A stretch of 64,000 bases of DNA from Acidobacteriota bacterium (GTDB taxonomy: Bacteria; Acidobacteriota; Blastocatellia; RBC074): assembly GCA_043740245.1 (NCBI GenBank), contig JAYUCP010000171.1:5835-69834 (forward strand), given 5' to 3'. The notes under the pieces were generated by a model. That model saw nothing but the letters and a program-made list of their open reading frames with translations, did not search any database and had not been told where the DNA came from. Both the position numbers and the translations under genes were made by a program. Positions 7,501 through 37,464 of the stretch are shown one piece after another. Numbering within the stretch: position 1 is the first letter of the stretch; each line of letters opens with the position of its first letter.

Positions 7501-10500
7501 GGCTGGCCGCAGCGGACGTGACGCTGCCGCACGCGCCGCTGACGACGACATCATAGCTGCCCGCGTCGCCCGCCGTGACGGCGGCGAGAGTGAGCGTGCT
7601 GCCGTTCGCGCCGCCGATATTCACGCCGCCCTTGCGCCACTGATAAGCCAGGCTCGTGCCCGTCGCATTGACTGCGAACGTGACCGCGCCGCCGAGACAC
7701 GACGCCTGATTCGTAGGCTGTGCATTGATGGCCGTTGTGGCGTTGACGGTCAAGGTTGCGGCGCTTGAAGTCAGCACGCCGCACGCGCCGCTGACAACCA
7801 CCTCATAGTTGGCGGCATCGGCTGCCGTGGCTGCGGCGATGGTGAAGCTGCCGCCGTTTGCGCCGTTGATGAGATTGCCGTTCTTGCGCCATTGATACGT
7901 CAGGTTCGTGCCTGTGGCCGTCGCGCTGAACGTCGCCGGCGTGCCCGCGCATACAGTTTGACTCGTTGGTTGCGTGTTGATGGCCGTTGCCGCATTGACT
8001 GTCAACGTGGCAACAGTCGAGGTCACGCTGCCGCACGCGCCACTGACGACCACGTCGTAACTCGCCACATCCGCAGCCGAGGCATTGGCGATGATGAAAC
8101 TGCTGCCCGTCGCGCCGCCAATGTTCACGCCGCCTTTGCGCCATTGATAACTCAGGCTTGCGCCCGTCGCCGCGACGCTGAAGCTTGCCGCCGCGCCCGC
8201 GCACACGGTTTGATTGGCGGGTTGTGTGTTGATGGCGGTCGTCGTGTTGACGGCCAGCGACGCGGCGCTTGAAGTCACGCTGCCGCACGCGCCGCTGACG
8301 ACCACATCATAGCTCGCCGCATCCGCAGCCGTGGCGGCGGGGATGGTGAAGCTGCTGCTGTTCGCGCCGTTGACGCTCGCGCCGTCCTTGCGCCATTGAT
8401 ACAGCAGGTTCGTGCCGGTGGCCGCCACGCTGAAGGTTGCCGGCGTGCCCGCGCAGACGGTTTGATTGGCCGGTTGTGTGTTGATGCTGGTCAGCGCATT
8501 GACTGTCAGCGTCGCCGCAGTTGAAGTCAACGTGCCGCACGCGCCGCTGACCACCACGTCATAGCTGGCGGCATCGGCTGGCGTGACGCCGGCAATCGCA
8601 TAGCTGCTGCCGTTTGCGCCGCCGATATTCACGCCATCTTTGCGCCATTGGTACGTCAATGCTGTGCCGCTGGCCGCTACGCTGAAGGTTGCGGCTGTGC
8701 CCGTGCATAGAGTTTGACTCGTTGGTTGCGTGTTGATGACTGTTGCCGCATTGACTGTCAACGTGGCAACAGTCGAGGTCACGCTGCCGCACGCGCCAGT
8801 CACGACTACATCGTAATTGGCGGCCTGCGCCGCTGTGGCTGTGGCAATCGTGAAGCTGCTGCCCGTCGCGCCGCCGATGTTCACGCCGTCATTGCGCCAT
8901 TGATAGGTCAGGTTCGTGCCGGTCGCGGTTACGGCCAAGCTCGCCGTTGCGCCGTTGCAGACGGTTTGACCGGCGGGTTGCGCAGTGATGGCCGTCACGG
9001 CATTGACGCTGAGCGTCGCCGTCGCGGAAGCCGTTGTGCCGCAGCCGTTGCTGGCCTCCACCGTGTAACCGCCCGCGTCAGCCGCTTGGGCATTGCTGAT
9101 GGTCAGCGTCGTGCCGGTCGCACCGGCAATGAAGCTGCCGTCTTTCTTCCACTGATAGCCGGTCGCGCCCGTCGCCGTGACGCTGAACGTGGCCGTGCCG
9201 CCCGCGCACAGCATCTGGCTGGCGGGTTGCGCGCTGATGACCGGTGCGGTGTTGACGATCAGCGTCGCGGCATTCGAGCTGACTGTGCCGCAGGTGTTGA
9301 CGACATCCACCGTGTAAGCGCCCGCATCGCCCGGTTGCGCGTTGTTGATGATGAGCGTGGCAGCGTTTGCGCCGCTGATGGCCGCGCCGTTCTTGCGCCA
9401 TTGATAATTCGTCGCACCCGTCGCGCTGACGCTGAAGGTGGCTGTGTCGCCAGCGCAGACCGTAGCGGCGACGGGTTGCGCCGTGATGGTTGGCGGATTG
9501 TTGACCGTCAACGTGGCCGCTGTTGAAACGACGCTCGCGCCGCAGGCATTGACCACGACGACATCGAAGAGCGCGCCGTTGTCGGCGGCGGTCACTGTCG
9601 GCGTGGTGTAACTGTTGTTCGTCGCGCCCGCGACGTTCACGCCGTTCTTGCGCCATTGATAGCTGAGCGTGCCGTTACTGGCGGTGACGACGGCGGTGAA
9701 CGTCGCGGCTTGGCCCGGACAGACCGTTTGATTGGCCGGTTGCGTAGCGATGACCGCCGTGCCTTCAGTGTAGTGCGCAAAAAACTGCGCTTGCTGGCCG
9801 CCCGCCGTCGTGAAATTGCCGCCGAGATAAAGCTGGCCGCCCGCCGCCGCCAGCGCCGTGCCGACCGCGCTTGAATTATTGAAACCGCCGCCCAGTCCGC
9901 TGCCCACGGCTGACCAGGTATTGTTGAGGGCATTCCAACGCGCCAGTTCGTTGACGCCGGTCAAGCCGCCGGCAATGGTGAAATCGCCCGTCGCGTAAAT
10001 TGAATTCCCGCTCACGGCCAGCGCGTAGACGGTGTGGCTGGGGATGCCGCTGCCCAGCGCCGACCACGTTGAAGTGCTCTCGTTCCATTTGGCGATGCTG
10101 GCGGCCGGCGCGCCGCCCGCGCTGGTGAAGGTGCCGCCCACATAAAGCTCGTTGCCGCGCACGGCCAGCGCGCGCACGGTGTTGGACTGCAAGCTGGGGC
10201 CGATGCCGCTGCCCAGCGCCGACCACGCGCTGCCGTTCCATTTGGCGATGCCGTTCGCGATGACGCCGCCCGCCGTGTCGTACCGCCCGCCCAGATAGAG
10301 GTTGTTCCCGCTCACCGCCAGTGCAAACACAAAGCTAAAGCTGCCGCCGATGCCGCTGCCCAACGCCGACCACGCGCTGCCGTCCCACTTGGCAATGCCG
10401 CTGGCCGGAAAGAAGGTGGTGCAGGCGGCATTGCTGCAAGCCGTGGTGAAGCTGCCACCGGCATAAACGTCATTGCCGCTGATGGCGATGGCATGCACAG

Positions 10501-12238
10501 TGCCGCCGCCGGAGGTGAGGCCGCCCAACAGCGCCACCCAACTCGTCCCATTCCATTTCGCGATGCCTCTGGTTGTCCCCTCGCTGGCGGTAATCGTGAA
10601 AGCCCCGCCCGCATATACGTCGCCGTTGGCGCTCACCGCAATCGCGCGAACCTCAGAGCCGGCGCCGCCCGCGAGGCCGTTGCCGAGCGCCGACCATTGC
10701 GTGCCGTCCCATTTGACGATGTTGTTGGCGGTGACGCCGCCCGCCACGGCGAACTGGCCGCCGACGTAAACATCAGCGCCGTGTATCGTGACCGCCGCGA
10801 TGTAGGGCGGAATGTTGCTGCTGCCGTATGAAGTGAAGATCGCCTTGCCGCCGCCGCCCAGCGCCGCCCACGCCGCGCCATTCCAGCGCGCCAGGTTGCT
10901 CACATTCGGCCCGCCCACGCCGCGAAAATCGCCGCCCACATAAAGGTCGCCGCCCGTGGCCGCCAGTGCATAAACAGCCACGACTAAGTTCGTCCCGCTG
11001 GCCGCCACACCGTTGCTGAGCGCCGCCCAGCTTGTGCCATTCCACTCCGCGATGTTGTTCACGGTCACGCCGCCCGCCGTCACAAAGCTGCCGCCCGCCG
11101 CGAGATTGCCGCCGCGCACCGCCAGCGCCCTGACCTTGAGCGAGTCGCTCAAGTTCGCGCCCAAGCCGCTGCCGAGTGCCGCCCACGCGCTGCCGTTCCA
11201 GCGTGCCAGACGGCTGGCGCTGACGCCGCCAATCGTGGTGAAGCCACCCCCCGCGACGAGTTCGCCGTTGTAAAACGCCAAGGCATAAACCGTGGCGCTC
11301 GCGCCCGTGCCCAGCGCCGTCCACGCGCTGCCGTCCCAACGCGCCACGCGATTCACCGTCACCCCGCCCGCCGCCGTGAAATCGCCGCCCGCATAAAGCT
11401 CCGCGCCGTTGAGCGTCAGCGCGAAGACCTGTCCTGCAAAAGGCGGCGCTGTCAGGCCCGGGCCGAGCGCCGCCCACGCGCTGCCGTTCCAGAGCGCGAT
11501 ATTATTCACGGTCACGCCACCCGCTGTGCTGAAGACGCCGCCGACGTAAACATTCGCGCCGCTGATGGCGATGGCGCTGACGTTCGGATTGAAAGCCGAA
11601 CTCAGTCCTGTTCCCAAAGCCGACCAAGTGCTGCCGTTCCATTTAGCTATCCCTTTGATGGCCGCGCCACCCGCCGTCGTGAATGTGCCGCCCGCATACA
11701 CGTCGTTGCCGCTCACGGCCAGCGCCAGCACGTCGCTGCCGAGACCGCTGCCCAGCGCCGACCACGCGCTGCCGTTCCATTTGGCGATGCGGTTGGCGCT
11801 GAGCGTGCCGACCAGCGTGAACGTCCCGCCGATATAAATGTCGCCCGTCGCGCTGACGGCTACGGCATTGACTTGGCCGACGGGGCCGGGCGCGTAAAAC
11901 TGCGTGTCCCAGTTTTCATCGCAGGTGGCAGCCGGAGCCGCGCTCGCCAGAAAGCGCGGCGCGCCATTGGCGGCCAACGCCATGCGCCAACCGCGCGCGT
12001 CGAAGCTGCCGCGCAAGTCCGGCGCGCCTTTCAGCGTGCCATCCGCATTGAGCAGGCCCGGATTGAGCGCCGTTGCCAAGGACGCGGATGCGCCGGGCCG
12101 CAGTGACGGCGCGTCCTGTGTCGCCCCGGCCTGGCGCGGCGTGAAGCTGAAGGTTGCGAACACGCTGGCGGCCAGCAGCAGGCCGAGCAGGGCAGCGCGT
12201 GTGAAGGGCGCTGATGGTTGGTGAAATACGCGAGGCAT
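4571..12238 (-). CDS. Giant secreted surface/adhesin-like protein (~2556 aa): Kelch-like propeller repeats, 14 Ig-like repeats, PKD-like domain, C-terminal FG-GAP/VCBS propeller
   Basis: AAGGAG RBS plus ATG at 12238 and signal peptide. The N-terminal third has ~50-aa repeats YAGG.F..AGGV..NNIAKWNGS.WSALG.G. Then 14 repeats of ~84 aa (..TQPANQTVCAG..ATFSV.ATG..L.YQWRK.GVNIGGA..S..TI...TAADA..YDVVV.GACG.VTS..A.LTVN). Then a PKD-like segment. Then ~7 repeats of GDYDGDG.DIAVWR....WY. Confidence 0.85.
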   Translation of the reverse strand: MPRVFHQPSAPFTRAALLGLLLAASVFATFSFTPRQAGATQDAPSLRPGASASLATALNPGLLNADGTLKGAPDLRGSFDARGWRMALAANGAPRFLASAAPAATCDENWDTQFYAPGPVGQVNAVAVSATGDIYIGGTFTLVGTLSANRIAKWNGSAWSALGSGLGSDVLALAVSGNDVYAGGTFTTAGGAAIKGIAKWNGSTWSALGTGLSSAFNPNVSAIAISGANVYVGGVFSTAGGVTVNNIALWNGSAWAALGPGLTAPPFAGQVFALTLNGAELYAGGDFTAAGGVTVNRVARWDGSAWTALGTGASATVYALAFYNGELVAGGGFTTIGGVSASRLARWNGSAWAALGSGLGANLSDSLKVRALAVRGGNLAAGGSFVTAGGVTVNNIAEWNGTSWAALSNGVAASGTNLVVAVYALAATGGDLYVGGDFRGVGGPNVSNLARWNGAAWAALGGGGKAIFTSYGSSNIPPYIAAVTIHGADVYVGGQFAVAGGVTANNIVKWDGTQWSALGNGLAGGAGSEVRAIAVSANGDVYAGGAFTITASEGTTRGIAKWNGTSWVALLGGLTSGGGTVHAIAISGNDVYAGGSFTTACSNAACTTFFPASGIAKWDGSAWSALGSGIGGSFSFVFALAVSGNNLYLGGRYDTAGGVIANGIAKWNGSAWSALGSGIGPSLQSNTVRALAVRGNELYVGGTFTSAGGAPAASIAKWNESTSTWSALGSGIPSHTVYALAVSGNSIYATGDFTIAGGLTGVNELARWNALNNTWSAVGSGLGGGFNNSSAVGTALAAAGGQLYLGGNFTTAGGQQAQFFAHYTEGTAVIATQPANQTVCPGQAATFTAVVTASNGTLSYQWRKNGVNVAGATNNSYTTPTVTAADNGALFDVVVVNACGASVVSTAATLTVNNPPTITAQPVAATVCAGDTATFSVSATGATNYQWRKNGAAISGANAATLIINNAQPGDAGAYTVDVVNTCGTVSSNAATLIVNTAPVISAQPASQMLCAGGTATFSVTATGATGYQWKKDGSFIAGATGTTLTISNAQAADAGGYTVEASNGCGTTASATATLSVNAVTAITAQPAGQTVCNGATASLAVTATGTNLTYQWRNDGVNIGGATGSSFTIATATAAQAANYDVVVTGACGSVTSTVATLTVNAATVINTQPTSQTLCTGTAATFSVAASGTALTYQWRKDGVNIGGANGSSYAIAGVTPADAASYDVVVSGACGTLTSTAATLTVNALTSINTQPANQTVCAGTPATFSVAATGTNLLYQWRKDGASVNGANSSSFTIPAATAADAASYDVVVSGACGSVTSSAASLAVNTTTAINTQPANQTVCAGAAASFSVAATGASLSYQWRKGGVNIGGATGSSFIIANASAADVASYDVVVSGACGSVTSTVATLTVNAATAINTQPTSQTVCAGTPATFSATATGTNLTYQWRKNGNLINGANGGSFTIAAATAADAANYEVVVSGACGVLTSSAATLTVNATTAINAQPTNQASCLGGAVTFAVNATGTSLAYQWRKGGVNIGGANGSTLTLAAVTAGDAGSYDVVVSGACGSVTSAAASLTLTEATAINTQPASQTACPGGAATFSVAASGAGTVTYQWRKGGVNIGGANVASLTINPVSAADAGNYDVIVNSTCGSVTSSAVTLTVNATTAINTQPANQTVCAGTSATFSVAASGTGLTYQWRKGGVNISGANGSSFTIATANAADAASYDVVVTGACGSTTSSAASLAVNTTTAINTQPANQTVCAGAAATFSVVATGASLSYQWRKGGVNIGGATAASFTINQVTAGDAAAYDVIVSGACGTVTSSAATLTVNTTTAISTQPQSATVCAGAPASFSVTAAGAGLSYQWRKDGVNISGATAASYNLASATAAQAGSYDVVVTGACGTVTSSAATLTVNPATAISAQPASQTANAGQSVAFAVTATGASLNYQWRKNGAAISGATASSYTIAAVTAADAGNYDVVVTGACGALTSNPAALTVGGGCATPVVSITSPPSGSIYPVGTAVNFTGAFTDAAGGTHSATWSFDAGTQPGVVNEAAGTVSASHTFTEAGVYQVTLTVSNGCGGQGTAITSGGLTALVVVYDPSAGFVTGGGWIVSPPGAYPPNPSLTGKASFGFVSKYKKGATIPTGETEFQFALANLNFHSTLYEWLVVAGARAQYKGAGTINNTGDYRFILTAIDGQQSGGGGQDKFRIRIWNNNGGGLVYDNQMNAPDSADPTTVLGGGQIVIHTGGNGNGLAAQSLVFGDFDGDGQADLTVWRGQTGEWLMLESNAASVRAELWGSSAAPYFDVPVAGDYDGDGKMDLAVFRRSTGMWFIKCSRDGAVISKLWGLGTDIPVPGDYDGDGQTDIAVWRGAESNWYILYSGRSSDQQVQTISWGVSTAPYRDVPVPADFDGDGQTDVAVFRQATGYWYIKQSSDGQVIARPWGLGTDIPVAADYDGDGKADIAVWRGAEGNWYVLRSSDDEVQAFAWGTAALGDVPVPGDYDGDGRADVAVWRARDSNWYVRLSRTGSVMTRAHGQTGDTPITAKQP
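6221..9751. repeat. 14 tandem 252-bp coding repeats (Ig-like domains) with high nucleotide identity
   Basis: 84-aa protein repeats counted 14 times (YQWRK motif). Spurious antisense ORFs in the six-frame track recur with exact 252-bp spacing (7551, 7803, 8307, 8559 and so on). Confidence 0.8.
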
Positions 12239-12365
12239 AGCAGTCTCCTTGGTTGGCTCTTTGTGTAGTTGTGATTGAAAGTGAATGAATAGGCAGCGCC
12301 GCGCACTGCGTCGCCGCACAGGTTGAGCGCGCGCCGGTGCGGTACGCGCGCGCGGTATATGGAAA

Positions 12366-21193: not shown

Positions 21194-24100
21194 ATGATGG
21201 ACACATTGCAAAAACAATTCGCGCCCGGTTTTTATGTGGTCGGCGGCACGCTGCGCCACGATGCGCCGTCGTATGTCGAGCGGCGCGCCGATCACGAGTT
21301 GTTTGAAGCCCTGGCGCGCGGCGAATTTTGTTACGTGCTGACGGCGCGCCAGATGGGCAAATCGTCGTTGATGATTCGCACGGCGATGCGGCTGCGCGCG
21401 GCGGGTTGCGGTGTCGCCGTGCTCGATCTGACCGCCGTGGGCCAGAACCTGACGGCGGAGCAATGGTACGGCGGGCTGCTCTTGCAAGTCGGTCAGCGGC
21501 TCGAATTGGAAGACGAGTTGATCGAGTTCTGGCAAGCGCAAACGCTGCTCGGCCCGTTGCAACGCTGGCTGGCGGCGTTGCGCACGGTGGTGTTGGCGCA
21601 TTATCCAACCAGGCGGCTGGCCGGGCGGCTGGTGATTTTCATTGACGAGATTGACGCGGTGCGCAGCTTGCCGTTTTCGACTGATGAGTTCTTTGCCGGG
21701 TTGCGCGAATGTTACAACCTGCGCAGTGAAGACGCGGAACTGGAGCGCCTGAGTTTTTGTCTGTTGGGCGTAGCGACACCAGCGGACTTGATCCGTGACA
21801 CCCGCACGACGCCTTTCAACATTGGCCGCCGCGTCGAATTGCACGATTTCACCGCCGCCGAAGCCGCGCCGCTCGCGCAAGGCTTGAATTGCCCCGCGCC
21901 CAGCGCCGGCGCTTTGCTGGCGCGCATTCATCACTGGACGAACGGCCATCCTTACCTGACGCAACGCCTCTGCCAGGCCGTCGCCGAAGCCAATCTGCAA
22001 GCCACCAACCACCAGCCGCAATTGCCGCAATTAGTGGATGAGTTGTGCGCCGAATTGTTTTTCACGCGGCGCGCGCAGGAACGCGATGACAATTTGCTCT
22101 TTGTGCGCGAACGCCTGTTGCGCAACGAGACCGCTGTGGCGAGCCTGCTCGATCTTTATGCCAAGGTGCGCAAGGGTCGCCGCGTGATGGATGACGAAGC
22201 CGATCCGCGGGTGAGCACGTTGCGCTTGGCGGGCATTACGCGCGGCGCGCCCGCCGGGTTGGCGGAAGCAGGCTTGCAAGTGCGCAATCGCATCTACGCG
22301 CGCGTTTTCGATCCGGCCTGGGTTGCGGCGAACATGCCGCAGGCCGAATTGCGGCGGCAACGCGCGGCCTATCGGCGCGGCATTGTGCGCACGGCCTTGT
22401 TGAGCGGGTTGTTGCTGGCGCTGGTGGGCTGGCTGGCTTTCACCGCCATCCGCCAACGCAACCGCGCCGAACAGGAAGCCGAAGCGCGGCGGCAGTTGCT
22501 TTACGATTCGCAACTGCGCTTTGCCTGGCAGGAGTACCAGACCATCACCAACACTGACCGCATCGAAGAGTTGTTGGATGGCACCCGTCCGCAACCCGGC
22601 CAGAACGATTTGCGCGGGTTCGAATGGTATCAACTCTGGGCGCTCACGCATGGCGGCGTGTGGAGCTGGCAGGAGACACACAAAGTCGTCGCCACAGCCT
22701 TCTCCCCGGATGGCCAGACGCTGGCAATCGGTACGGCCAATCGCACGGGCGCGCACGGCGACAATCACTATCTGGTGAAACTCTACGACTTCAACACACG
22801 GCGCGAACTGCGTTCATTCCTCACACCCGCAGGCAACAGCTTCGATCTCATCAGCTTTACGCCAAACCTTGAACGTGTAGCCACAGATAGCCCCGGCAAT
22901 AACGTTGTGATGTGGGATGTGCTGACGGGCCAGCCGTTGGCGGTATTCAAAGGACACACCGCTTTGCTGACGGTCATCGCCTTTGCGCCCGATGGCCGCT
23001 GGCTGGCGACCGGCGATGTGACCGGCGTCGTGAAGCTCTGGGACACGGCGACGGGCCGCGAACGATTGACGCTGGGACAAAGCAAGACAGGCGCGCCGCC
23101 CTCGCACGACATCACCTGGCTCGCCTTTGCGCCGGATGGCCGCCGGCTGTTGGCCGCCGATGGCACATCAACCGCGCGTTGGTGGGAAACCGCGACAGGC
23201 CGCGCGCTGCCGCCGTTCACCTTGCCGGATGGCTTTGTTCAAAACGCCGTCTTTCTGCCCGGCGGCAAACAGATATTGATGGGCGACAAAGACAGCGTAT
23301 TCCACCTGTGGGACGTAGCAGCGCGGCGGCATTTAACCCGCTGGAACGGTCACGCCGGCTTTATCAAAGCCTTCGCTTTCGCGCCTGATGGCCGCACGTT
23401 GGCGACCGGCAGTTATGACCGCACCGTCAAACTCTGGCCGTTGGCGACGCTGCCTAAACAAGCGCCGCAACCCACGACGTTGCGCGGCCACGGCTCGGCG
23501 GTTTATTGCCTGGCCTGGTCGCCCGATGGCCGCTGGCTGGCGACGGGCAGTTTGGACAACACCGTCAAACTGTGGGACACGCACGTGCCGACCGACTTGC
23601 GGCTGCCGGCGGAAACGGTGGTTTCTTGGCACGCGACGGCGTTCACCAGCACGCACGAATTACTGGCGCTCGGCACGAGCAAAGGCGGAGAGGTGAAGCT
23701 CTGGAATCTGTCTACCGGCCAGACATTGGCGCAACTCAGCGGGTTGGAACCGGACAAGCCGTTGTTGTGCGCCGTCTTTTCGCCCGATCAACAGTTGGTG
23801 GTGACGAGCGGCATGGATTCGCTGGTCAGGCTCTGGGATACGGCCAGCGGGAAGCTGCTGCAAACGCTGGATCGGCACACGTCACTGGTCAAAGGCTTGG
23901 CCTTTTCAGCCGATGGCAAGTTGCTGGTGTCAGGTGGCGACGATTCATTATTCCAACTCTGGGAGACAGCAACGGGGCGCGCGTTGGGCCAATTCAAAAG
24001 TGAGGTGGACAATGCCTGGCGCGCGGCCTTTGCGCCGGATGGCCGCACACTGGCGGGGGCTTGCCGCGACGGCAGCGTGAAGCTGTGGGACGTGGCGACG

Positions 24101-24487
24101 CAACGACTCTTGCGCAGCTTCAATGGGCACACGGACAGAGTCAAAGCCCTGGCCTTTTCGCATGACGGCCACTGGCTGGCGACCGGCGGCGATGACGGCA
24201 TCATCAAATTGTGGGAAGCCGCCACGGGCCGCGCGCTGAAAACGCTGGGACGCAGCGACAAACTGCAACGCCTCGCCTTCTCGCCCGACGGCAAACGCCT
24301 GGTCACGGGCGGTGTGGATGGCGCCGTCAAACTCTGGGATCTGACCACCGGCCAGGAACTGCTGACCTTGCCAGGCCACCAGGACGAAGTGACTTCGCTC
24401 ACCTTTGCGGGCGACGGGTTGAGCCTGGCAACCAGCGGCGGCGACGGCACAGTGCGGCTTTGGCGCGCGTCGGCTGCTAGGCAGTAA
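21194..24487 (+). CDS. AAA-like ATPase domain + predicted TM helix + ~14 WD40 repeats (1097 aa)
   Basis: N-terminal P-loop ARQMGKSSLM and DEID Walker B-like motif. A hydrophobic segment ALLSGLLLALVGWLAFTAI lies around residue 400. The C-terminal half has repeated GH....V.AFAPDGR.LATGS.D..VKLWD units. Confidence 0.85.
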   Translation: MMDTLQKQFAPGFYVVGGTLRHDAPSYVERRADHELFEALARGEFCYVLTARQMGKSSLMIRTAMRLRAAGCGVAVLDLTAVGQNLTAEQWYGGLLLQVGQRLELEDELIEFWQAQTLLGPLQRWLAALRTVVLAHYPTRRLAGRLVIFIDEIDAVRSLPFSTDEFFAGLRECYNLRSEDAELERLSFCLLGVATPADLIRDTRTTPFNIGRRVELHDFTAAEAAPLAQGLNCPAPSAGALLARIHHWTNGHPYLTQRLCQAVAEANLQATNHQPQLPQLVDELCAELFFTRRAQERDDNLLFVRERLLRNETAVASLLDLYAKVRKGRRVMDDEADPRVSTLRLAGITRGAPAGLAEAGLQVRNRIYARVFDPAWVAANMPQAELRRQRAAYRRGIVRTALLSGLLLALVGWLAFTAIRQRNRAEQEAEARRQLLYDSQLRFAWQEYQTITNTDRIEELLDGTRPQPGQNDLRGFEWYQLWALTHGGVWSWQETHKVVATAFSPDGQTLAIGTANRTGAHGDNHYLVKLYDFNTRRELRSFLTPAGNSFDLISFTPNLERVATDSPGNNVVMWDVLTGQPLAVFKGHTALLTVIAFAPDGRWLATGDVTGVVKLWDTATGRERLTLGQSKTGAPPSHDITWLAFAPDGRRLLAADGTSTARWWETATGRALPPFTLPDGFVQNAVFLPGGKQILMGDKDSVFHLWDVAARRHLTRWNGHAGFIKAFAFAPDGRTLATGSYDRTVKLWPLATLPKQAPQPTTLRGHGSAVYCLAWSPDGRWLATGSLDNTVKLWDTHVPTDLRLPAETVVSWHATAFTSTHELLALGTSKGGEVKLWNLSTGQTLAQLSGLEPDKPLLCAVFSPDQQLVVTSGMDSLVRLWDTASGKLLQTLDRHTSLVKGLAFSADGKLLVSGGDDSLFQLWETATGRALGQFKSEVDNAWRAAFAPDGRTLAGACRDGSVKLWDVATQRLLRSFNGHTDRVKALAFSHDGHWLATGGDDGIIKLWEAATGRALKTLGRSDKLQRLAFSPDGKRLVTGGVDGAVKLWDLTTGQELLTLPGHQDEVTSLTFAGDGLSLATSGGDGTVRLWRASAARQ

Positions 24488-26339: not shown

Positions 26340-28721
<2,382 letters not shown>

Positions 28722-28999: not shown

Positions 29000-29029
29000 T
29001 TGCCACGCCGGAAATGACCGGACTATAAT
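29000..29029 (+). promoter_or_regulatory. Sigma70-like promoter candidate (TTGCCA-N18-TATAAT)
   Basis: TTGCCA at 29000-29005 and TATAAT at 29024-29029, ~105 nt upstream of the hydrogenase-like operon start. Confidence 0.3.
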
Positions 29030-29135
29030 CGCGCCCGACTTTCCAAGGTTGCGTCAGCAACTTCCAATTGGCAATCCCCAAGCAATATCGTGCAGGTTCT
29101 GAGCCGGTGGTTTCTAAGGACAAGGTGACGGTGGC

Positions 29136-30074
29136 ATGAGACAAGGGAATGGCTTTTCCGAAACGGCCTGGCTGATCTGGCTTTCGGGCGCGGGCTGTGA
29201 CGGTTGCACGCAAGCCTTGATTGGCGCGGCTGAGCCCAGCCTCGAAGATTTGCTCCTCGGCAATATCCCGGATGTGCCGCGCTTGGCGCTCATTCATCCG
29301 CAATTCGGCCCGCACTTTTTTACCCAACCCAAAAATTCATCCCGCTCAACCGGTTCGTTGCGGCCCGTCAATGAAAATTACTGGAAGCCGGGCGAGAGTT
29401 ACGAAACGCTCTTGCGGCGCGCGGCGGCGGGCGAATTGCACCCGTATCTATTGGTGTTGGATGGCGCGTTGTATGAGGAACCTGTCGCCACAAACGGCAG
29501 CTTTGCCCAAATTGGCGCTGACCGCGAAGGCCAGCCGCTGACGACCGCCAGTTGGTTAAAGCTGTTGGCCCCGCACGCCGAGGCCGTGCTGGCCGTAGGC
29601 AGTTGCGCTAGTTTCGGCGGCATGCCGGCGGCGACAGTTGACGCCACAGTTGCCAACGGCGTCGTGGTCAAAGGCATTGAAGACGTTTTGGGCAAGCAGT
29701 TCCGTAGCCAGAGCGACTTGCCCGTGATACATCTGCCGGGTTGTGCGCCGGCGGGTGAATGGATGCTTGAAACGCTGCATTACATTTTCTTGCACCTGGC
29801 ACACCTGGTGCCGCTCGACCTGGATGAAACCGGCCGGCCGCGCTGGTTATTCAACAAAGAAACCTATCCCTTGCCGCCGCGCGCTGATTATCCACCAGCG
29901 GCGGATTTCGACGCGGCGCGTTCACCCAAAGTGGCGTGTACTGTGCCCGCCCAGGGTTGGTTGCGCGGCTTGGGCGGATGCACGCGGATGGGCGGCAGTT
30001 GCATCGCTTGCACGGAGCGCAATTTTGCCGACCGGCATTTGCCGTTCGCGCGGCCTGATGCGTTTGCCGCTTAG
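29136..30074 (+). CDS. [NiFe]-hydrogenase small-subunit-like protein (cytoplasmic type, no Tat signal)
   Basis: LIWLSGAGCDGCTQALIG aligns with the small-subunit N-terminus (..ECTGCSES..). LAVGSCASFGGMPAA and PGCAPAGEW match the GxCAxxGG and PGCPP proximal-cluster motifs. The C-terminal cysteines are C-x17-C-x5-C-x2-C. No RR motif. Confidence 0.6.
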   Translation: MRQGNGFSETAWLIWLSGAGCDGCTQALIGAAEPSLEDLLLGNIPDVPRLALIHPQFGPHFFTQPKNSSRSTGSLRPVNENYWKPGESYETLLRRAAAGELHPYLLVLDGALYEEPVATNGSFAQIGADREGQPLTTASWLKLLAPHAEAVLAVGSCASFGGMPAATVDATVANGVVVKGIEDVLGKQFRSQSDLPVIHLPGCAPAGEWMLETLHYIFLHLAHLVPLDLDETGRPRWLFNKETYPLPPRADYPPAADFDAARSPKVACTVPAQGWLRGLGGCTRMGGSCIACTERNFADRHLPFARPDAFAA

Positions 30075-30195
30075 ATCGGATTTCAATTCGGTATACGGGA
30101 AATTGGTGGGACGATTTGGCTAATCGTCCCACCGGCTTCCTGGCCTGATTCAGCAGTTCAGTTTGACCGGCTGACTTGTAGGAAGAGAGGGATAC

Positions 30196-32052
30196 GTGAG
30201 TTTTCACGACGCAGTGCTAACCAGTGAGCGGACGGAAGCTGGGTTGGCGTCCGAACTGCGCTTCGACAATTTGCCTATCCGCAGCGCTGCCGAGGGCGGC
30301 TTCTCTCTCTGCGAGGGCGTTTGGCCAGAGCCGTTCAGCCTGAAAGGCGGCGCAGAACGGCGCGAACAGGCGCGCACGCGCGCGCAGGTGATTCAAGAGC
30401 TGCGCCAAAAGCCGGAAGTCCAGACCTTTGAAATTTCCACGCTGACACAAACCAGCAGCGGGCTGGGCCTGTACAGCGTGATTGATCTGGCGCAACGCAA
30501 AGTCTGGGACGCGCGCTTGAGCATGAATTTGCTGCGCGAGTTCGAGCCGCTGTTGCTGCAACGCCATCCTTCGGACGCGCTGCATTTCGCCAGCCGCGCG
30601 TGCGGGCGCGATAGCGGCGCGCAAACGATTGCCTCGATTATGGCGTTGGAGATGGCTTATGGCGTAACGCCGCCGCCGCTAGTGGTGTTGATTCGCAACC
30701 TGGGTCAATGCGCAGAGTTGATCGCCAACAATCTGTATAGCCTGTTTTTGCTGGCGGGCACCGATTACTCCGAAGCCGTGCTGAGCCGCTCGAATCCCGC
30801 GCTCTGGCGCAAGGCCCAACAGAGCGCCGCCCCCGGCGCGTTGCTGCACGGCATGCCGACCATCGCGGGCATTATGCTGGGTTTGAATCGTATGCAAGGG
30901 CATTTGCACAGCGAGGCCTGGCAGACGCTGCGCACGGCGCGCGAGTTGACGGCGATTCTCTTCGGCAAGTATCCGCATCCGACGACGCTTTATCCGGGCG
31001 GTGTTGGCATCAATGCGGACAAGGAATTATTCACGCAGGTGCTGGGCCGCGTGAATCAATTGCTCGATTTCAGCAAGCGCGTGCTGGCGCTCTGGAACGA
31101 CGTGATTAACTTCCTGCTCGAAAGCGAGCCGCGTTTCAAACGCGCGGGCGCGACCCCGGCGAATTTTCTGAGCGCGGGGCTGTGGGATGATCCGCAGAGT
31201 TACGATGCGAGCTTTGAAAATTGCAGCGCCTGGGGCGAACGGCGCGGCGCGACGCCCGGCGTCGTCATCAACGGCAGATTGCGGACGACGCGGCTGGCCG
31301 AGTTGAACCTGGGCGTAGAAGAGTTTGTCGAACATTCGTATTACCAACCGTGGGTGGGTGATTATTGCGATGTTGATTTGGCGGGCGCGCCGCTCTCGCC
31401 CTTCCATCCGTGGAATAAACAAACCTTGCCGCAACCGTCCGCGCGCGCCTGGCTGGGGCGTTATTCCTGGTTGACCGCGCCGCGCTGGGATCGCGAAACC
31501 GTCGAGACCGGCGCGCTGGCGCAATTGTGGATCACGGCGCTGGCGGGCTCCCTGGAAAGCGAATTCATCCATATCACAGGTCAGGGGCTGGAAATTGAAT
31601 TGCCGAAAGTTCAACTGCCCGCCTTTAGATTCACCTGGCAACTTCCAGCGCACCCGAACACCTTGGAGCGCGTGCGTGCCCGCGCCGCGCAAACGGCGTA
31701 TGCGGCGGTGATGGCATTTGAAATGTTGTTGCAGGCCTTCGATTACCTGCGGCGTCCCGGCCAGCGTGAACTTTCGGCGCCGTATCAAGTGCCGAAGCTG
31801 GCGATGGGCGTGGGCTTTGGTGAAAGCGGGCGCGGCCCGGCGCTGCATCATCTGTTGATCGCCGACAGCAAGCTGCTCAATTACCAATTGAGCACGCCGT
31901 TGAATTGGCTGGCCGCGCCGCGCGATTGTTACAGCGCGCTCGGCGTCATCGAAGCCGCCTTGATGAATACGCCGATTCTGGAAGAGTTTGCTGAGCCGGA
32001 CGCATTTACCGGCATTGATTTGCTGCGGACGATTCGCAGTTTCGATCCGTGA
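30196..32052 (+). CDS. [NiFe]-hydrogenase large-subunit-like protein lacking Ni-Fe ligand motifs (618 aa)
   Basis: AGAGAGGGA RBS plus GTG at 30196. SRACGRDSGAQTIAS aligns to the L1 motif RICGVCTxxHALAS. GESGRGPALHH and KLLNYQLSTPLNWLAAPRD match conserved large-subunit blocks. The protein ends ...LRTIRSFDP with a TGA stop exactly where DPCxxCxxH (L2) begins. Confidence 0.6.
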   Translation: MSFHDAVLTSERTEAGLASELRFDNLPIRSAAEGGFSLCEGVWPEPFSLKGGAERREQARTRAQVIQELRQKPEVQTFEISTLTQTSSGLGLYSVIDLAQRKVWDARLSMNLLREFEPLLLQRHPSDALHFASRACGRDSGAQTIASIMALEMAYGVTPPPLVVLIRNLGQCAELIANNLYSLFLLAGTDYSEAVLSRSNPALWRKAQQSAAPGALLHGMPTIAGIMLGLNRMQGHLHSEAWQTLRTARELTAILFGKYPHPTTLYPGGVGINADKELFTQVLGRVNQLLDFSKRVLALWNDVINFLLESEPRFKRAGATPANFLSAGLWDDPQSYDASFENCSAWGERRGATPGVVINGRLRTTRLAELNLGVEEFVEHSYYQPWVGDYCDVDLAGAPLSPFHPWNKQTLPQPSARAWLGRYSWLTAPRWDRETVETGALAQLWITALAGSLESEFIHITGQGLEIELPKVQLPAFRFTWQLPAHPNTLERVRARAAQTAYAAVMAFEMLLQAFDYLRRPGQRELSAPYQVPKLAMGVGFGESGRGPALHHLLIADSKLLNYQLSTPLNWLAAPRDCYSALGVIEAALMNTPILEEFAEPDAFTGIDLLRTIRSFDP

Positions 32053-32056
32053 CTGT

Positions 32057-32200
32057 TGAAGTCAAAAAAGACTTTCACCACGAAGCAAACGAAGGAAACG
32101 AAGAAAAGAGGCAGCTTTTCTGGCAGGCTTCCCAAATTCTTCGTGTTCTTCGTTTCTTCGTGGTCGCAGTTCTTGAAGTCTTTACGACCCCAAATGATCC
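32057..32200. other. AT-rich long imperfect stem-loop immediately 3' of the hydrogenase-like gene
   Basis: Left arm aaagactttcaccacgaagcaaacgaaggaaacgaagaa pairs with right arm ttcttcgtgttcttcgtttcttcgtggtcgcagttcttgaagtcttt. Local GC is far below the window average. A strong RBS ATAAGGAGG for the kinase gene follows. Confidence 0.4.
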
Positions 32201-32235
32201 TGCATCCCTGATGTGCCCTGATAAGGAGGCAGCCC

Positions 32236-35200
32236 ATGCGATTACCCAGTTGGAAGTTCAAAAATAACGAGACCGAGATTCAAGACAAGCTGCAACAAGA
32301 GACGGCCTGGCCGGATATGTTCGCCAATTTGCAAAGCGCGTATGCCGAGTTGACCAACGCACAATTTGAACTGGAGCGGCGCGCCTCTGAAATCGCCGAG
32401 ACGCGCGACCTGGTGCAACAGATCATCTCTTCGATGTCAGAGGCCTTGTTCCTGACCGACCGCGCGGGCCGTGTCGTGCGCGCCAATCCGGCGGCGGCGG
32501 CGCTGTTGGGCTGCAACGAAGAAGCCATTCTGGGCCGCTTGCTTTCGGTCGTTTGCAACAACGAAGAAATTCCGGCGACCCCGTGGAAGCTGATGGAAAT
32601 GGCGAATGGCGGGCGCACCGTCACGCTGGACATTGACGTGCGGCCCCCCGAAGGCCAGATGATTCCGGTCAGCTTCTCACTGACGTTGATGCACGACAAA
32701 CAGGACAAGATCACCGGTGTGCTGGCCGTGGCGCGCGATATGCGCGAACAGCGGCGCCTGATTCACAGCCTCGTCTCGGCCCGCACGCGCTTTCAGGAAT
32801 TGCTCGAATTCGCGCCCGACGCCATCGTGCTGGCGAACCAGGAAGGCAACATCGTGCTGGTCAATTCGCAAACCGAAAAGCTCTTCGGTTACAACCGCGA
32901 AGCCCTGCTCGGCCAAAGCGTAGAGTTGCTGGTGCCCGAACGCTATCGCAAAAAAAATGGCGCAGCGGCGGCGGCTGAAACGGACGGCAACGGCGATCTC
33001 AGCGATCTGAGCGGCATCCTGGAAAACCAGACTGAGAATCGCAACGCGCTGATCTTGCAAAACGCCGATGAAAGCGCGCAGCAAATCGAATTTTATGTCG
33101 TGGACGCGCGGGGCCGCGAATTTCTGACCGAGATCACCCAGCGCCCCATCGTCACCGAAGACGGGCTGTTGCTGATGAGCGTCATCCGCGACGTCAGCGA
33201 ACGGCAGCGCATTCAACAGGAATTACACAACAGCGAAGCCCGTCATCGCGCGCTGGCCGAAACCGCGCAGGATGTGATTCTGACGATGGATGCCGAGCGC
33301 ACCATTCGCTTTGTCAATTCGGCGGTAATGCGGGTTTTCAACTACCAGCCCGAAGAATTGATCGGCAAATCAGCCAGCGTGTTGTTGCCCAATAGTGGCG
33401 GGCCGGAAACCGCGCGCGCGCCGGTCGGCACCGGCAAATTGCGGCAGGATAGTTCGCGGCAGGAAACGATCGCGCTCTGCAAAGACGGCAGCGAAGTCCT
33501 GGTTGAAATCTCGCACAGCCAATTCAAGCAACAGGGGCAGGTGCTTTACACCGCCTTCATCCGCGACATCACCGAGCGCCGCCGCATTGAGGGCAAGTTG
33601 CGCGAGAGCGAAGAGCGTTATCGCAACGTCGCGCTCACGGCGTCGGAAGTGATCGTCACGATTGACGAACAGATGGCGGTTCAATTCGCCAACCCGGCGG
33701 TCACGCGCGTCTTCGGTTACACGCCCGAAGAAATGATGGGCCAGCCGATCACCATGATTATCCCGCCGCAGTTGCAGGCCGCGCATACGGCTGGGATGGA
33801 GTGTTATCTGAAGTCGGGCGAGCGCAAGCTGAATTGGAACAGCATCGAAGTGCCCGCACAGCACAAGGACGGGCGCGAGCTACAGATCGAACTCTCCTTT
33901 AGCGAATTCAACCGCGAGCAGCGCCGCTACTTCACCGGCATCATCCGCGACATCAGCGACCGCAAGCGGATGGAACAGCAGATTCAAGAAAGCGAAGAGC
34001 GTTACCGCAACGTCGCGCTCACAGCGGGCGAAGCCATTGTGACCGTGGACGAAGACGACACGATTCAATTCGCCAACCCGGCCATCGCGCGCGTCTTTGG
34101 CCACGAGGCGCAAACCTTGCTCGGCCGCAAGGTCAGCGAATTGATGCCCGCTTACGACCAGCACATACACAAAGCCAGCGCGACCAATGGCTCGACCAAA
34201 CGCGGCTATGATTGGCAAGGCGTCGAATCGCGCGGCCTGCACCGCGACGGGCGCGAAGTTGCGCTCGAAGTTTCTTTCAACGAATTCACCCGCGCAGGCA
34301 AGCGGTTGCGCACCGGCGTCATCCGCGACATCACCGAGCGCAAGCGGGTCGAAGCGAAGTTGCGCCTGAACATGCGCGCGCTCGAAGCCAGCGCCTTCCC
34401 GATTTTGATTTCCGACGCGCTCGCGCCCGATATGCCGCTGAGCTATGTCAACCCGGCGTTTGAACGCACGACGGGTTACAGCGCCGCCGAGGTGCTCGGC
34501 AAAAACTGCCGCTTCCTGCACGGCGAGGAACGCGCGCAAACGGGTCTGGTTGAATTGCGCGCGGCGTTGCGCGAGGGCCGCGATTGCACGGTGACGCTGC
34601 GCAACTTCCGCAAAGACGGCACGCTGTTCTGGAACGAACTGACCGTCTCGCCAGTGCGCGACGCGCAAGGCAGGGTGACGCATTTTGTCGGCTTCGAGAA
34701 CGACATCACGGCCAAGAAAAATGCCGAACAGGCCGTGCTGGAAGCCACCGCCGTGCAACGCGCCATTCTCGATTTCGCCAGTTACGCGATTATTGCGACC
34801 ACGCCCGACGGCGTGATTACTACCTTCAATCCAGCCGCCGAAAAGTTGCTGGGTTACAGCGCCAGTGAGTTGATCGGGCAACAGAGTCTCGTCATTCTGC
34901 ACGACCCCAGCGAATTGGCTGACCGCGCGCAAACACTGGCCGCAGAGTTGGAACAAGCCGTTGCACCCGTAGGCACGCCCAATGTTGACGTGCTGTTTGC
35001 CAAGGCGCGCATGAATCAGCCCAATGAATCCGAATGGACTTACCTGCGCAAAGACGGCGCGCGCCTGCCCGTCAATCTTTCGGTTTCGGCGCTGCGCGAT
35101 GCGCACGGCGAACTCACCGGCTTCCTGGCGATTGCGAATGACATCACCGAACGCAAACGCGCGCAGGAACGCTTCACGCGGCAAACTGCTTTGCGCCTGG

Positions 35201-37464
35201 CGCTGTCAGAAGCGCTCGCCGATGCCACCGCCAGTCCGCAACAATTGCTCAGCCAGACGCTGGCAATCGTGGCTGAGCAGATGCAAGTCGAAATCGCGCG
35301 TTGTTGGTTGCGCGATGACCAGAGCGGTCAGCTTGAATTGCAAGCTTCCACTGGCACTGCACTGTTGACTGAAAGCGCGGCTTCGTCCGGCCACGAGACA
35401 TCCGCACAAGGGCGCATCGGGCAGATTGCGCGGGCGCGCAAACCGCTCCTCGCAAACAGTGCGGTTGGACTCTTTGAACACGGCGACAGCGATTCTGTGC
35501 TCATCGAATTGGATACACACTCCACCGCTCAGCGCGAGCAGGAATTTGCCGAGACCGCCGGGTTGACGGCCTTCGCCGGTTATCCGTTGCTGGCGGGTGA
35601 ACGGCTCTTGGGAGTTCTGGCAATTTATGCGCGCCAACCACTGGATGCCGACGTGCTGAGCGCCTTGGGTGCTGCTGCGGATGCGCTGGTGCTCGGACTC
35701 GAACGCCAACGCGCGCAGGAAGAGCGTGCCCGCTTACAAGCCCGTGAGACGGCCCGTGCCAATCAGCACGCGGCGCTGCGCATTGAAATCAGCAGCGCGC
35801 TCAACCAACTCGACACCACCCTGCCAGCGATGTTGCAAGGCTGTGCCCAAGCTGTCGTCAATCATCTTGATGCCGCTTGTGCGCGCGTGTGGCTGGTGAA
35901 TGACAGCGGCGCGACCGTGGAATTGCAGGCAAACGCCGGGCTTGCCGCGCACACCGGTGAGGCGCACCAATCCGTCCCCGTCGGCAAAGCTGAAATCGGC
36001 TTGATTGCCGCAGAGCGGCAACCGCACTTAACCAATGATGTGTTGAATGATTCGCGCGTCGTTGACAAGGAATGGGCCGCGCGCGAAGGCTTGACGGCCT
36101 TTGCCGGGTATCCGCTGCTGGCGCAAGGCCGCGTGTTGGGCGTGCTGGCGATGTTTGCCAAACACGAACTCGAACCGGATACGTTCAACGCGCTGGCCGC
36201 TGTCGCCGATCAAATCGTGCTCGGCGTCGAACGCCACAAGGCCGAAGAGGCCCGCGCCGCGTTGCTGGCGAATGAGCAAGCCGCGCGCCGCGAAGCCGAA
36301 GAAGCCAGCCGCTTGAAAGACGATTTCCTGGCCATGATTTCGCACGAACTACGCGCGCCGCTCACGGCCATTCTGGGCTGGGCGCAAATGCTGCGCGCTG
36401 GCACCTTGGATCGCACCGCTGCTGAACGCGCCTTGGCGACGATTGAACGCAACGCCAAATCGCAAGCCCATCTGGTGGGCGATTTGCTCGACGCTTCGCG
36501 TATCGCCACCGGCAAACTGCGGCTGGACAAGAAGCCTTGCGAATTGCGCGAATTGATTGATGCGGCGATTGACGCCATCCGGCCTTCGGTCGAAGCCAAG
36601 AGCCTGCGGCTGCAAGTCGTGATGGAGCCCTGGGTCGGCCCCTTTGAAGGCGACCCCGAACGCATGAAACAGATCGTCTGGAATCTGCTCTCGAACGCGA
36701 TCAAATTCACCCCGCCCGCGGGCTTGATCGAAATCCGTTTGGAGAAGATGGAAAACCGCGCGTTGCTCATCGTGAGCGACACGGGCCAAGGCATCGAGCA
36801 GGAATTCCTGCCCTTGGTTTTTGACCGCTTCCGTCAATCAGACAGTTCGACCAAACGCCAACACGGCGGGTTGGGGCTGGGCCTGGCCATTGTGAAATCG
36901 CTGGTGGAAATGCATGGCGGTGCGATATACGCCTACAGTGGCGGGAAAGAGCAGGGCACTGATTTCATGGTGACCTTGCCCCTGTCCACGCCAAATGCCG
37001 AAACAACCGCGCAAGAACTCTGGGCCCCCAGCGATGACACGCGCGAATTGCGCGGCGTGGGCAGTCTGAAAGGGGTGCGCGCTTTGGTTGTGGATGATGA
37101 ACACGACACGCGTGAGATATTGGCGGTCATGCTGGGCCGCTTTGGCGCGGAAGTGCGCACGGGCGCTTCCGCCGCCGAAGGCTTGCGTCTGCTGAAATCC
37201 TGGCGGCCCGATTTGCTGGTGTCAGATATCGGCATGCCCGGTGAAGATGGCTACGCATTGATCGGCAAGCTGCGTGCGCTGCCGGTGGAAGAAGGTGGCG
37301 AAACGCCTGCGATTGCGCTCACCGCCTTCGCCAGTAGTCAGGATCGTCAGAAGGCGCTCGAAAGCGGTTTTCATGTCCACTTGGCAAAGCCGGTCGAGCC
37401 GGTCGAATTGGCGCGCATGGTCGCGCGCACGTTGGGCCGCAGCGAAGCCGGGATTGCGCTGTAA
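32236..37464 (+). CDS. Hybrid sensor histidine kinase: ~8 PAS/PAC + ~3 GAF + HisKA + HATPase_c + receiver (1742 aa)
   Basis: AAGGAGG RBS plus ATG at 32236. Multiple ..[15 protein letters not shown]....I.FANPA..RVFGY..EE..G.. PAS units. H-box [18 protein letters not shown] and G boxes [11 protein letters not shown] and [17 protein letters not shown]. The C-terminal receiver is [10 protein letters not shown]...[14 protein letters not shown]. Confidence 0.9.

Follow-up and report, generated by a model that had tools for sequence, protein, structure and literature searches.

A 64,000-nucleotide stretch of a soil Acidobacteriota bacterium (GTDB lineage Acidobacteriota; Blastocatellia; RBC074), taken from contig JAYUCP010000171.1 of assembly GCA_043740245.1 and referred to below as the window, carries a three-gene module that we read as a system of the regulatory-hydrogenase/kinase type in which the hydrogenase part has turned into a pseudoenzyme. 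The two subunits encoded there probably form a cytoplasmic heterodimer with the [NiFe]-hydrogenase fold that is unable to bind the NiFe(CN)2CO cofactor, and we call this pair a pseudo-hydrogenase. Its partner would be a HoxJ-like histidine kinase, to which it probably reports the redox state of iron-sulfur (Fe-S) clusters and not the presence of H2. The module looks like an H2 sensor that has been rebuilt for another signal. An earlier note, made from the letters of the window, had described three open reading frames (ORFs) at this place; all are present, and all lie on the same strand. The module and its principal features are the following.

29136-30074, + strand: hydrogenase small-subunit-like gene, 312 amino acids (aa), cytoplasmic product (Pfam PF01058 and PF14720)
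30196-32052, + strand: hydrogenase large-subunit-like gene without a NiFe site (LSU1-type), 618 aa (PF00374)
30595-30624, + strand: degenerate L1 motif RACGRDSGAQ, residues 134-143 of the large subunit (alignment to 5AA5_C and 120 homologues)
32035-32052, + strand: C-terminus of the large subunit, RSFDP followed by TGA, with the DPCxxCxxH motif missing after DP
32236-37464, + strand: hybrid sensor histidine kinase gene, 1742 aa (Pfam and NCBIfam)
32296-32784, + strand: HoxJ/HupT-like N-terminal helix and PAS module, kinase residues 21-183, the presumed docking site for the pair (BLASTP against HoxJ)
34372-34746, + strand: putative LOV-type PAS domain, kinase residues ~713-837, with the motif GKNCRFL (NCBIfam and motif)

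A search of 5.8 billion proteins yielded 217 relatives, of which the best 120 were aligned, and 68 loci were fetched for a survey of genomes. All 68 come from metagenome-assembled genomes (MAGs), with no cultured isolate among them, and the family is widespread in uncultured Acidobacteriota. We define "dead" large subunits as those with a degenerate L1 motif and an RSFDP end, and "live" large subunits as those in which all four ligand cysteines are present. Reference hydrogenase proteins were taken from the megaplasmid pHG1.

The metal ligands of the large subunit have been removed selectively, and nearly all of its other conserved residues have been kept. Hidden Markov model searches that the earlier note had proposed found NiFeSe_Hases (PF00374, 2.7e-49) in the 618-aa protein, and both Oxidored_q6 (PF01058, 4e-18) and NiFe_hyd_SSU_C (PF14720) in the 312-aa protein. 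Among solved structures the actinobacterial-type (group 5/1h) hydrogenase of Ralstonia eutropha, 5AA5, is by far the best match of both subunits. The large subunit matches 5AA5_C (HofG, E 1.8e-110), and the same chain is the top Foldseek match (5aa5_C, TM 0.78/0.86) of an AlphaFold (AF2) model of moderate confidence (pLDDT 74, pTM 0.81). When the two sequences are aligned, SRACGRDSGAQ of the window stands opposite SRICGICGDNH of 5AA5_C: Cys136 is kept, the second cysteine is replaced by Asp, and the His by Gln. This agrees with the earlier description of RACGRDSGAQ, with one cysteine left, in place of the canonical L1 motif, and the catalytic signature RxCGxCxxxH with its two Ni/Fe-ligating cysteines does not occur in the window protein. 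The protein had also been said to end at RSFDP, where DPCxxCxxH should begin, and it does so. The TGA stop occupies 32050-32052, and HofG continues into Cys-x-x-Cys-x-x-His from that exact point. No CxxCxxH was found downstream of RSFDP in any of the three frames; the in-frame continuation reads LLKSKKTF.... Three of the four Ni ligands are absent from the window large subunit, and the Ni-Fe site is gone, as had been suspected; all four ligand cysteines are absent in most of its relatives. Variants of L1 among the best 120 of the 217 relatives include RACGRDS[GA]A[QH], RARG[TS]SSVAH, RVSGQGSGAN, RICGWGAGAN and RxCGSSSGAH.

The loss is a property of a large family. The 68 loci hold 76 dead large subunits, which end at RSFDP and are spread over about 55 of the loci, and 19 with all four cysteines. 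Dead and live proteins are consistently separated by only about seven alignment columns and by the absent C-terminal CxxCxxH. The columns are 139 (Cys in the live proteins), 140 (Gly replaced by Ser), 142 (Val replaced by Ala), 178, 287, 450 and 570, and three residues are newly conserved among the dead proteins: Ser140 (72 of 76), Ala142 (69 of 76) and Asn287 (74 of 76).

The N-termini of the large subunits also vary, as seen in the window and in loci L002, L005, L007, L025, L026, L048, L061 and L070. Most live large subunits begin M/V-C-F-x-x-LPI, with Cys at position 2, whereas the dead ones examined have Val, Ile, Thr, Tyr or Pro there instead; the live LSU2 of L005 (MYF) is an exception to the pattern of the live proteins. 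The window protein has 20 additional N-terminal residues ahead of LRFDNLPI.

There is next to no chance that the truncation is an artefact or a sign of decay, whether a sequencing error, a frameshift, a selenocysteine codon or a recently inactivated hydrogenase pseudogene. The TGA does fall exactly at the position that selenocysteine occupies in [NiFeSe] enzymes. However, read-through at 32050 is ruled out by a downstream peptide that has no CxxH and by orthologues that end in TAA or TAG. Among the dead homologues the stop codon at this same residue is TGA in 44, TAA in 33 and TAG in 9, and the orthologues of the window gene in L001 and L011 stop with TAA. A frameshift or sequencing error is ruled out as well, since the missing motif is in no frame and the identical 618-aa ORF was called in independent ENA and Logan assemblies. 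Resequencing of the stop, which had been recommended, is unneeded because of this identity and because the truncation is conserved throughout the family. The L1 motif is degenerate too, besides the lost C-terminal motif. Against three orthologues, the ratio of nonsynonymous to synonymous substitution rates (dN/dS, Nei-Gojobori) is 0.10-0.19 in the large-subunit gene and 0.17-0.20 in the small-subunit gene; for the kinase, compared with L001, it is 0.10. The genes are under purifying selection, and the values of the large subunit rule out a pseudogene. The earlier note's suggestion of a repurposed sensor or scaffold gains support: the ligand loss is old and conserved, and purifying selection acts on it. 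None of the findings that the note had named as contradicting it turned up, since the ligands are lacking, the TGA is neither an error nor a selenocysteine codon, and the ORF is not of the NuoD/Ech type.

The small subunit retains two cluster sites. Its best match in the PDB is 5AA5_A (HofK, E 1.2e-46). The N-terminus reads MRQGNGFSETAWLIWLSGAGCDGC, a twin-arginine (Tat) signal (RRxF) is absent from it, and the first cysteine motif lies at residue 21. It had been noted that the protein has no Tat signal and keeps proximal cysteines; all four cysteines of the proximal cluster are indeed present (C21, C24, C157 and C203), and so, beyond what was noted, are the four of the medial cluster (C268, C282, C289 and C292). 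These eight cysteines are invariant in 60 of the 61 small subunits of the family, and both sites are intact in the dead modules. The ligands of a distal cluster, as found in HofK, HoxB and HoxK, are missing in the window protein and in 53-56 of the 61, including the live sensors of grade A described below. Their loss in live sensors too fits a sensor rather than an energy-conserving enzyme. Since the distal ligands are already absent there, the electron exit was lost before the catalytic site. A separate feature of the small subunits in the window and L001 is an insertion of about 24 residues, QFGPHFFTQPKNSSRSTGSLRPVNENYWK (window 29304-29390, residues ~57-85), which is absent from the other aligned family members.

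Across phyla the module shares its operon with an orthologous hybrid kinase, in which it is specifically the first ~180 residues that resemble HoxJ. The window kinase is, as described before, a 1742-aa multi-PAS/GAF hybrid kinase downstream of the pair with a strong ribosome-binding site, AAGGAGG at 32223-32229 ahead of the ATG at 32236. Pfam assigns it at least seven PAS, two GAF, HisKA, HATPase_c and Response_reg domains, and NCBIfam agrees. The order is HoxJ-like N-terminal module, multiple PAS, LOV-like PAS, two GAF, HisKA (H1370), HATPase and REC, with the histidine of the H-box present (SHELRAP). Residues ~22-183 are collinear with HoxJ ~11-173 over 163 residues with one gap (BLASTP, E 2e-13). 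With HoxJ(1-180) as the phmmer query the first module scores 40.6 bits, while none of the other six PAS domains exceeds 3.8 bits, and the same match confined to the first module is seen in the kinases of other loci. Identity over residues 1-150 is 67-70% across the acidobacterial loci and 54-58% to the kinases of live sensors. The kinase core is 78-83% identical across the acidobacterial loci; the central PAS region is 22-40% identical and varies in domain number.

In loci from different phyla the genes keep the succession small subunit, large subunit and kinase. Where the sequence extends 1.5 kb or more downstream, a histidine-kinase core follows the final large-subunit gene within 500 nucleotides (nt) in 32 of the 39 loci that have only dead copies, in all 4 mixed ones and in 7 of the 10 live ones. 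For four of the seven dead-only loci that lack one, the downstream sequence (1.5-2.2 kb) ends before a kinase core could be reached. The LOV-like PAS domain of the window kinase scores 189 bits with the YtvA model (cutoff 250) and 179 bits with a LOV-kinase model (cutoff 450). The codon for Cys758 of its motif is at 34507-34509, and the NCRFL motif occurs only in the kinases of the window, L001 and L011.

Sequence affinities indicate that the ancestors of the module were H2-sensing regulatory hydrogenases of a lineage sister to the high-affinity enzymes of group 1h/5, and not members of group 2b. HofG (group 1h) shares 36.7% identity with the large subunit of the window (blastp E 1e-122), HoxC (2b) 27% (E 3e-36) and HoxG (1d) 25%; for the small subunit the figures are 33% with HofK and 27% with HoxB. 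A neighbour-joining tree places the entire kinase-linked clade beside genuine 1h-type enzymes. Membership of group 2b was rejected on this affinity (HofG 36.7% versus HoxC 27%), and the module also lacks the reactive NiFe site by which that group is defined. The parallel that had been drawn with HupUV/HoxBC signalling to HupT/HoxJ is strengthened by the conserved gene order and the HoxJ-like N-terminus of the kinase but has to be corrected for descent.

The loci can be arranged in a graded series from live to dead modules. Grade A, found in MAGs of Rokubacteria, Actinomycetota, Chloroflexota and Gemmatimonadota, consists of one small subunit, one intact large subunit (RACGVCGGVH ... DPC[ML]PC[TA]VH and a ~20-aa extension) and a short hybrid kinase of 412-872 aa. 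In L007 and L027 it adjoins a true 1h operon with an endopeptidase, and in L007 a HypE gene as well. In grade B, seen in some Blastocatellia, the small subunit is accompanied by two large subunits, LSU1 (dead) and LSU2 (live), and by a kinase of ~1000-1190 aa. LSU2 stops at the motif His without the extension. Such loci may encode a sensor of three subunits in which one large subunit is live and the other dead. In grade C, which comprises most Blastocatellia, LSU1 and LSU2 are both dead. Grade D has a single dead large subunit and includes the window, L001, L010 and L011. The window large subunit falls in the LSU1 clade, all sampled lineages of which have a dead protein. No protease, Hyp or 1h genes were found within 8-10 kb of loci with dead copies, whereas the live loci L007 and L027 adjoin them.

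Several of these loci have features of their own. In L007 (9105-13599 and 14779-21237) and L027 the 1h-type operons beside the sensor encode a 633-aa large subunit, a 434-aa small subunit, a Rieske protein and a HycI-like protease; the two sensors look like an H2-sensing regulator of high-affinity hydrogenases, of which we found no description in the literature. An LSU2 that keeps all four cysteines and ends at the motif His lies next to a dead LSU1 in L005 (10001-11812), L019 (8001-9809), L020 (7956-9812) and L026 (7995-9806). The LSU2 proteins of L019 and L020 have Asn in place of the L1 His (RVCGLC..AN). The subclade of L021, L029 and L035 has RACGTESVAH as L1 and ends at RSFDV, and in L029 the pair (7016-9770) is followed by a major facilitator superfamily transporter, a zinc-ribbon protein and a STAND-like NTPase. 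Many contigs with the acidobacterial-type operon are titled "uncultured Heliomicrobium sp." or "Heliobacteriaceae" and look like mislabelled Blastocatellia-like MAGs.

Comparison with known systems brings out what is distinctive in the window module. HydDB lists group 2b as its sole kinase-linked [NiFe] sensor class (PMC5037454), and HoxJ and the regulatory hydrogenase form an H2-sensing complex according to Buhrke et al. 2004, as cited in PMC10073562. With these group 2b systems, HoxBC-HoxJ of Cupriavidus necator and HupUV-HupT of Rhodobacter, the module shares a cytoplasmic small subunit without a Tat signal, the order of small subunit, large subunit and kinase, a kinase N-terminal helix-PAS region homologous to that of HoxJ, and a hydrogenase fold that feeds a two-component system. 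It differs from HoxBC and HupUV in that the pair has no NiFe site, two putative Fe-S sites instead of three and no long C-terminal tail on the small subunit, and from HoxBC-HoxJ in that the kinase is a 1742-aa hybrid with extra PAS, LOV-like and GAF domains and a receiver. Neither a HoxA-type regulator nor a hydrogenase regulon was found near the window module.

Group 1h/5 enzymes (HofKG, PDB 5AA5; Hhy) are the closest relatives of both subunits by sequence and predicted fold, and an N-terminal "F-x-N-LPI-x-FD" extension is common to the window family and the 1h-type enzymes of the same phyla. Unlike those enzymes, the module has no catalytic site, C-terminal motif or extension, or distal cluster, and no accessory or maturation genes in the 64-kb window, and its proximal motif is CxxC (Cys24), compared with CxxD (Asp35) in HofK. 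The sensors with intact ligands, for example in L007, L027, L048 and L061 (MAGs of Rokubacteria, Actinomycetota and Chloroflexota), have orthologues of all three proteins in the same order as the window, the small subunit again without a distal cluster and the hybrid kinase with a HoxJ-like N-terminus; unlike the window they keep RACGVCGGVH, DPC[ML]PC[TA]VH and the ~20-aa extension, and their kinases measure 412-872 aa. Re-use of the hydrogenase fold after the loss of NiFe ligands has a precedent in NuoD, Ech and Ehr. An identity with these group 4-derived proteins, which form another branch, was rejected, only PF00374 and not PF00346 having matched. Unlike them the module has no membrane subunits, its neighbours are a kinase, a reductase-like gene and exopolysaccharide genes, and its output would be signalling and not ion translocation.

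By analogy with the complex of HoxBC and HoxJ, the pair probably docks on the N-terminal helix-PAS module of the kinase, where it would modulate the rate or extent of autophosphorylation. With the capacity to split H2 gone, the kinase would most likely read the redox state or the integrity of the two [4Fe-4S] clusters, which cellular redox carriers or O2 could set by way of the surface-exposed medial cluster. The kinase would integrate this input with those of its added PAS, LOV-like (blue light) and GAF domains and pass phosphate out through the receiver domain, the likely targets being the conserved neighbouring lipid and exopolysaccharide genes. Several points weigh against such a scheme. 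Docking, Fe-S occupancy and redox sensing are features that we infer from homology and conservation, and the invariant cysteines could serve a purely structural need for the clusters. The small subunits, at ~285-312 aa, stop directly after the medial-cluster motif with nothing that matches the HoxB C-terminal peptide, which aids HoxJ binding. The sister lineage of L021, L029 and L035 has the pair without an adjoining kinase. Co-transcription of the three genes is only presumed, because the 183-nt spacer between the large-subunit and kinase genes carries a strong hairpin. A wider proposal is more tentative still: the widespread acidobacterial pseudo-hydrogenases may act as Fe-S redox or O2 sensors, and the HoxJ-like kinases that they serve may govern genes for envelope lipids and exopolysaccharides. 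The series, which begins with a live sensor and passes through live-plus-dead and doubly dead loci to those with one dead large subunit, would then imply that the kinases of regulatory hydrogenases generally read the Fe-S relay and not the NiFe site.

The main rival to Fe-S sensing is that the pair is inert. As a permanent structural or allosteric partner it would hold the HoxJ-like kinase in the "no-H2" state, and all regulation would have moved to the added PAS, LOV-like and GAF domains. We regard this as somewhat unlikely, though it accounts for several observations. No metal site is conserved in the large subunit, where even the remaining Cys136 is replaced by Asp in P0002 and by Arg or Ser in most LSU1 proteins. 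The kinases of the dead-subunit lineages (750-1746 aa) greatly exceed in length those that go with live sensors (412-872 aa), and a LOV-like domain has been added in the window clade. It is harder to reconcile with eight Fe-S cysteines that are invariant in 60 of 61 small subunits, a costly feature for a passive brace, or with a dN/dS of the large subunit as low as that of the kinase. The kinase, moreover, is already expanded where LSU2 is still live (L005, L019 and L026). A lesser rival, which we consider improbable, holds that the buried cavity left by the cofactor and the last seven residues binds another small molecule or a metal as the signal. The chain does stop exactly at the former active site, the dead proteins share new residues there (Ser140, Ala142 and Asn287), and the window clade keeps Cys136 and Asp139. 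However, the former ligand positions vary so widely between subclades (CD, RS, SG, SA, CS, CE) that no common binding chemistry is apparent, and the AF2 model is of only moderate confidence.

Two further explanations would give the large subunit a more traditional role, and we think each of them very improbable. HoxV and HupK are hydrogenase-large-subunit-like proteins without enzyme activity (PMC12134894). Like them, the window protein is a large-subunit homologue that does not have the full ligand set, and a dead large subunit could be imagined to carry Fe(CN)2CO during assembly of a real hydrogenase, the more readily as dead LSU1 adjoins live LSU2 in the grade B loci. But blastp finds no similarity to HoxV, and phmmer with HoxV matches live large subunits only, and weakly. 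The window protein has 618 aa versus 383 aa for HoxV and is paired with a small subunit and a kinase, whereas HoxV is encoded in the hox/hyp maturation cluster of pHG1 and not beside such partners. Most loci have no live partner large subunit, and hyp, protease and catalytic hydrogenase genes are absent from the 64-kb window and from the vicinity of dead-only loci. A HoxV/HupK identity was rejected on the lack of blastp similarity and of a hyp context. That the module still senses H2 through a non-canonical metal site, as its descent from live H2 sensors and its retention of the Fe-S relay and the HoxJ-like partner might suggest, is equally hard to credit, given that the window protein has lost three of the four cysteine ligands and most of its relatives have lost all four, with no Hyp machinery nearby.

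A search of full-text literature returned no description of a cysteine-less, kinase-linked hydrogenase pair, only papers on classical regulatory hydrogenases, HoxV and HydDB, an absence that is not proof of novelty. To our knowledge, the route by which a signal passes from a regulatory hydrogenase to HoxJ or HupT has not been resolved. A natural variant with Fe-S sites and a kinase partner but no NiFe site is a ready-made dissection of the question of whether Fe-S redox alone can drive the kinase. The series also presents the stepwise turning of a complex metalloenzyme into a signalling pseudoenzyme with living intermediates. Members of the family go under the names "nickel-dependent hydrogenase large subunit" and "Hydrogenase-1 large chain" in source databases. 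Metagenomic surveys that leave the cysteine ligands unchecked could overcount atmospheric-H2 oxidisers in soil Acidobacteria, because the family passes PF00374, carries hydrogenase names and has a 1h enzyme as its best characterised relative.

The surroundings of the module contain three further features.

29000-29029, + strand: candidate sigma-70-type promoter, TTGCCA-18 nt-TATAAT, matching 11 of 12 consensus positions
32077-32165, + strand: long imperfect hairpin in the 183-nt spacer between the large-subunit and kinase genes (minimum free energy -66.6 kcal/mol, z -4.2)
26340-28721, - strand: divergent gene for a HAD and fatty-acyl-reductase-like protein (NAD_binding_4/Sterile; Pfam)

The candidate promoter agrees in position with one proposed in the earlier note, at ~29000-29029. 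A 56-bp block around it (29000-29055) is 100% identical in the window, L010 and L001, the coding dS values of which are 0.34-0.85. Between the -35 and -10 hexamers of this block lies CCGGAAATGACCGG, which could be an operator.

The spacer between the large-subunit and kinase genes is a fast-evolving hotspot of repeats and hairpins. The hairpin of the window (~89 nt) contains inverted repeats, the spacer of L001 has tandem repeats of the (CATCCGG)n kind with inverted repeats of GATGCTAG on either side, and that of L011 is only 26 nt long. A role of the hairpin as a conserved regulatory RNA was rejected: it is not kept in L001 or L011 and has no significant Rfam match.

No hyp, endopeptidase, nickel-transport or catalytic hydrogenase genes were found within the 64-kb window. 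The divergent HAD/reductase-like gene is also present upstream of the module in other loci that have enough sequence on that side: in 20 of the 32 with only dead copies and in 2 of the 4 mixed ones. Downstream of the module is an exopolysaccharide cluster of about 25 kb (38835-62043, + strand) that encodes TPR, Wzy, Wza and two Wzc-like proteins, glycosyltransferases, a flippase and a methyltransferase; in related loci there are, in addition, genes for a pyruvyl transferase, an epimerase, an acyl-CoA ligase and the exosortase EpsH. Elsewhere in the window are genes for a 2582-aa Ig/PKD/FG-GAP repeat protein (4571-12319, - strand), a 1097-aa STAND-like protein with AAA_35 and WD40 domains (21194-24487, + strand) and, about 3 kb upstream of the module, an extracytoplasmic function (ECF) sigma factor (PF07638; 25472-26104, + strand).

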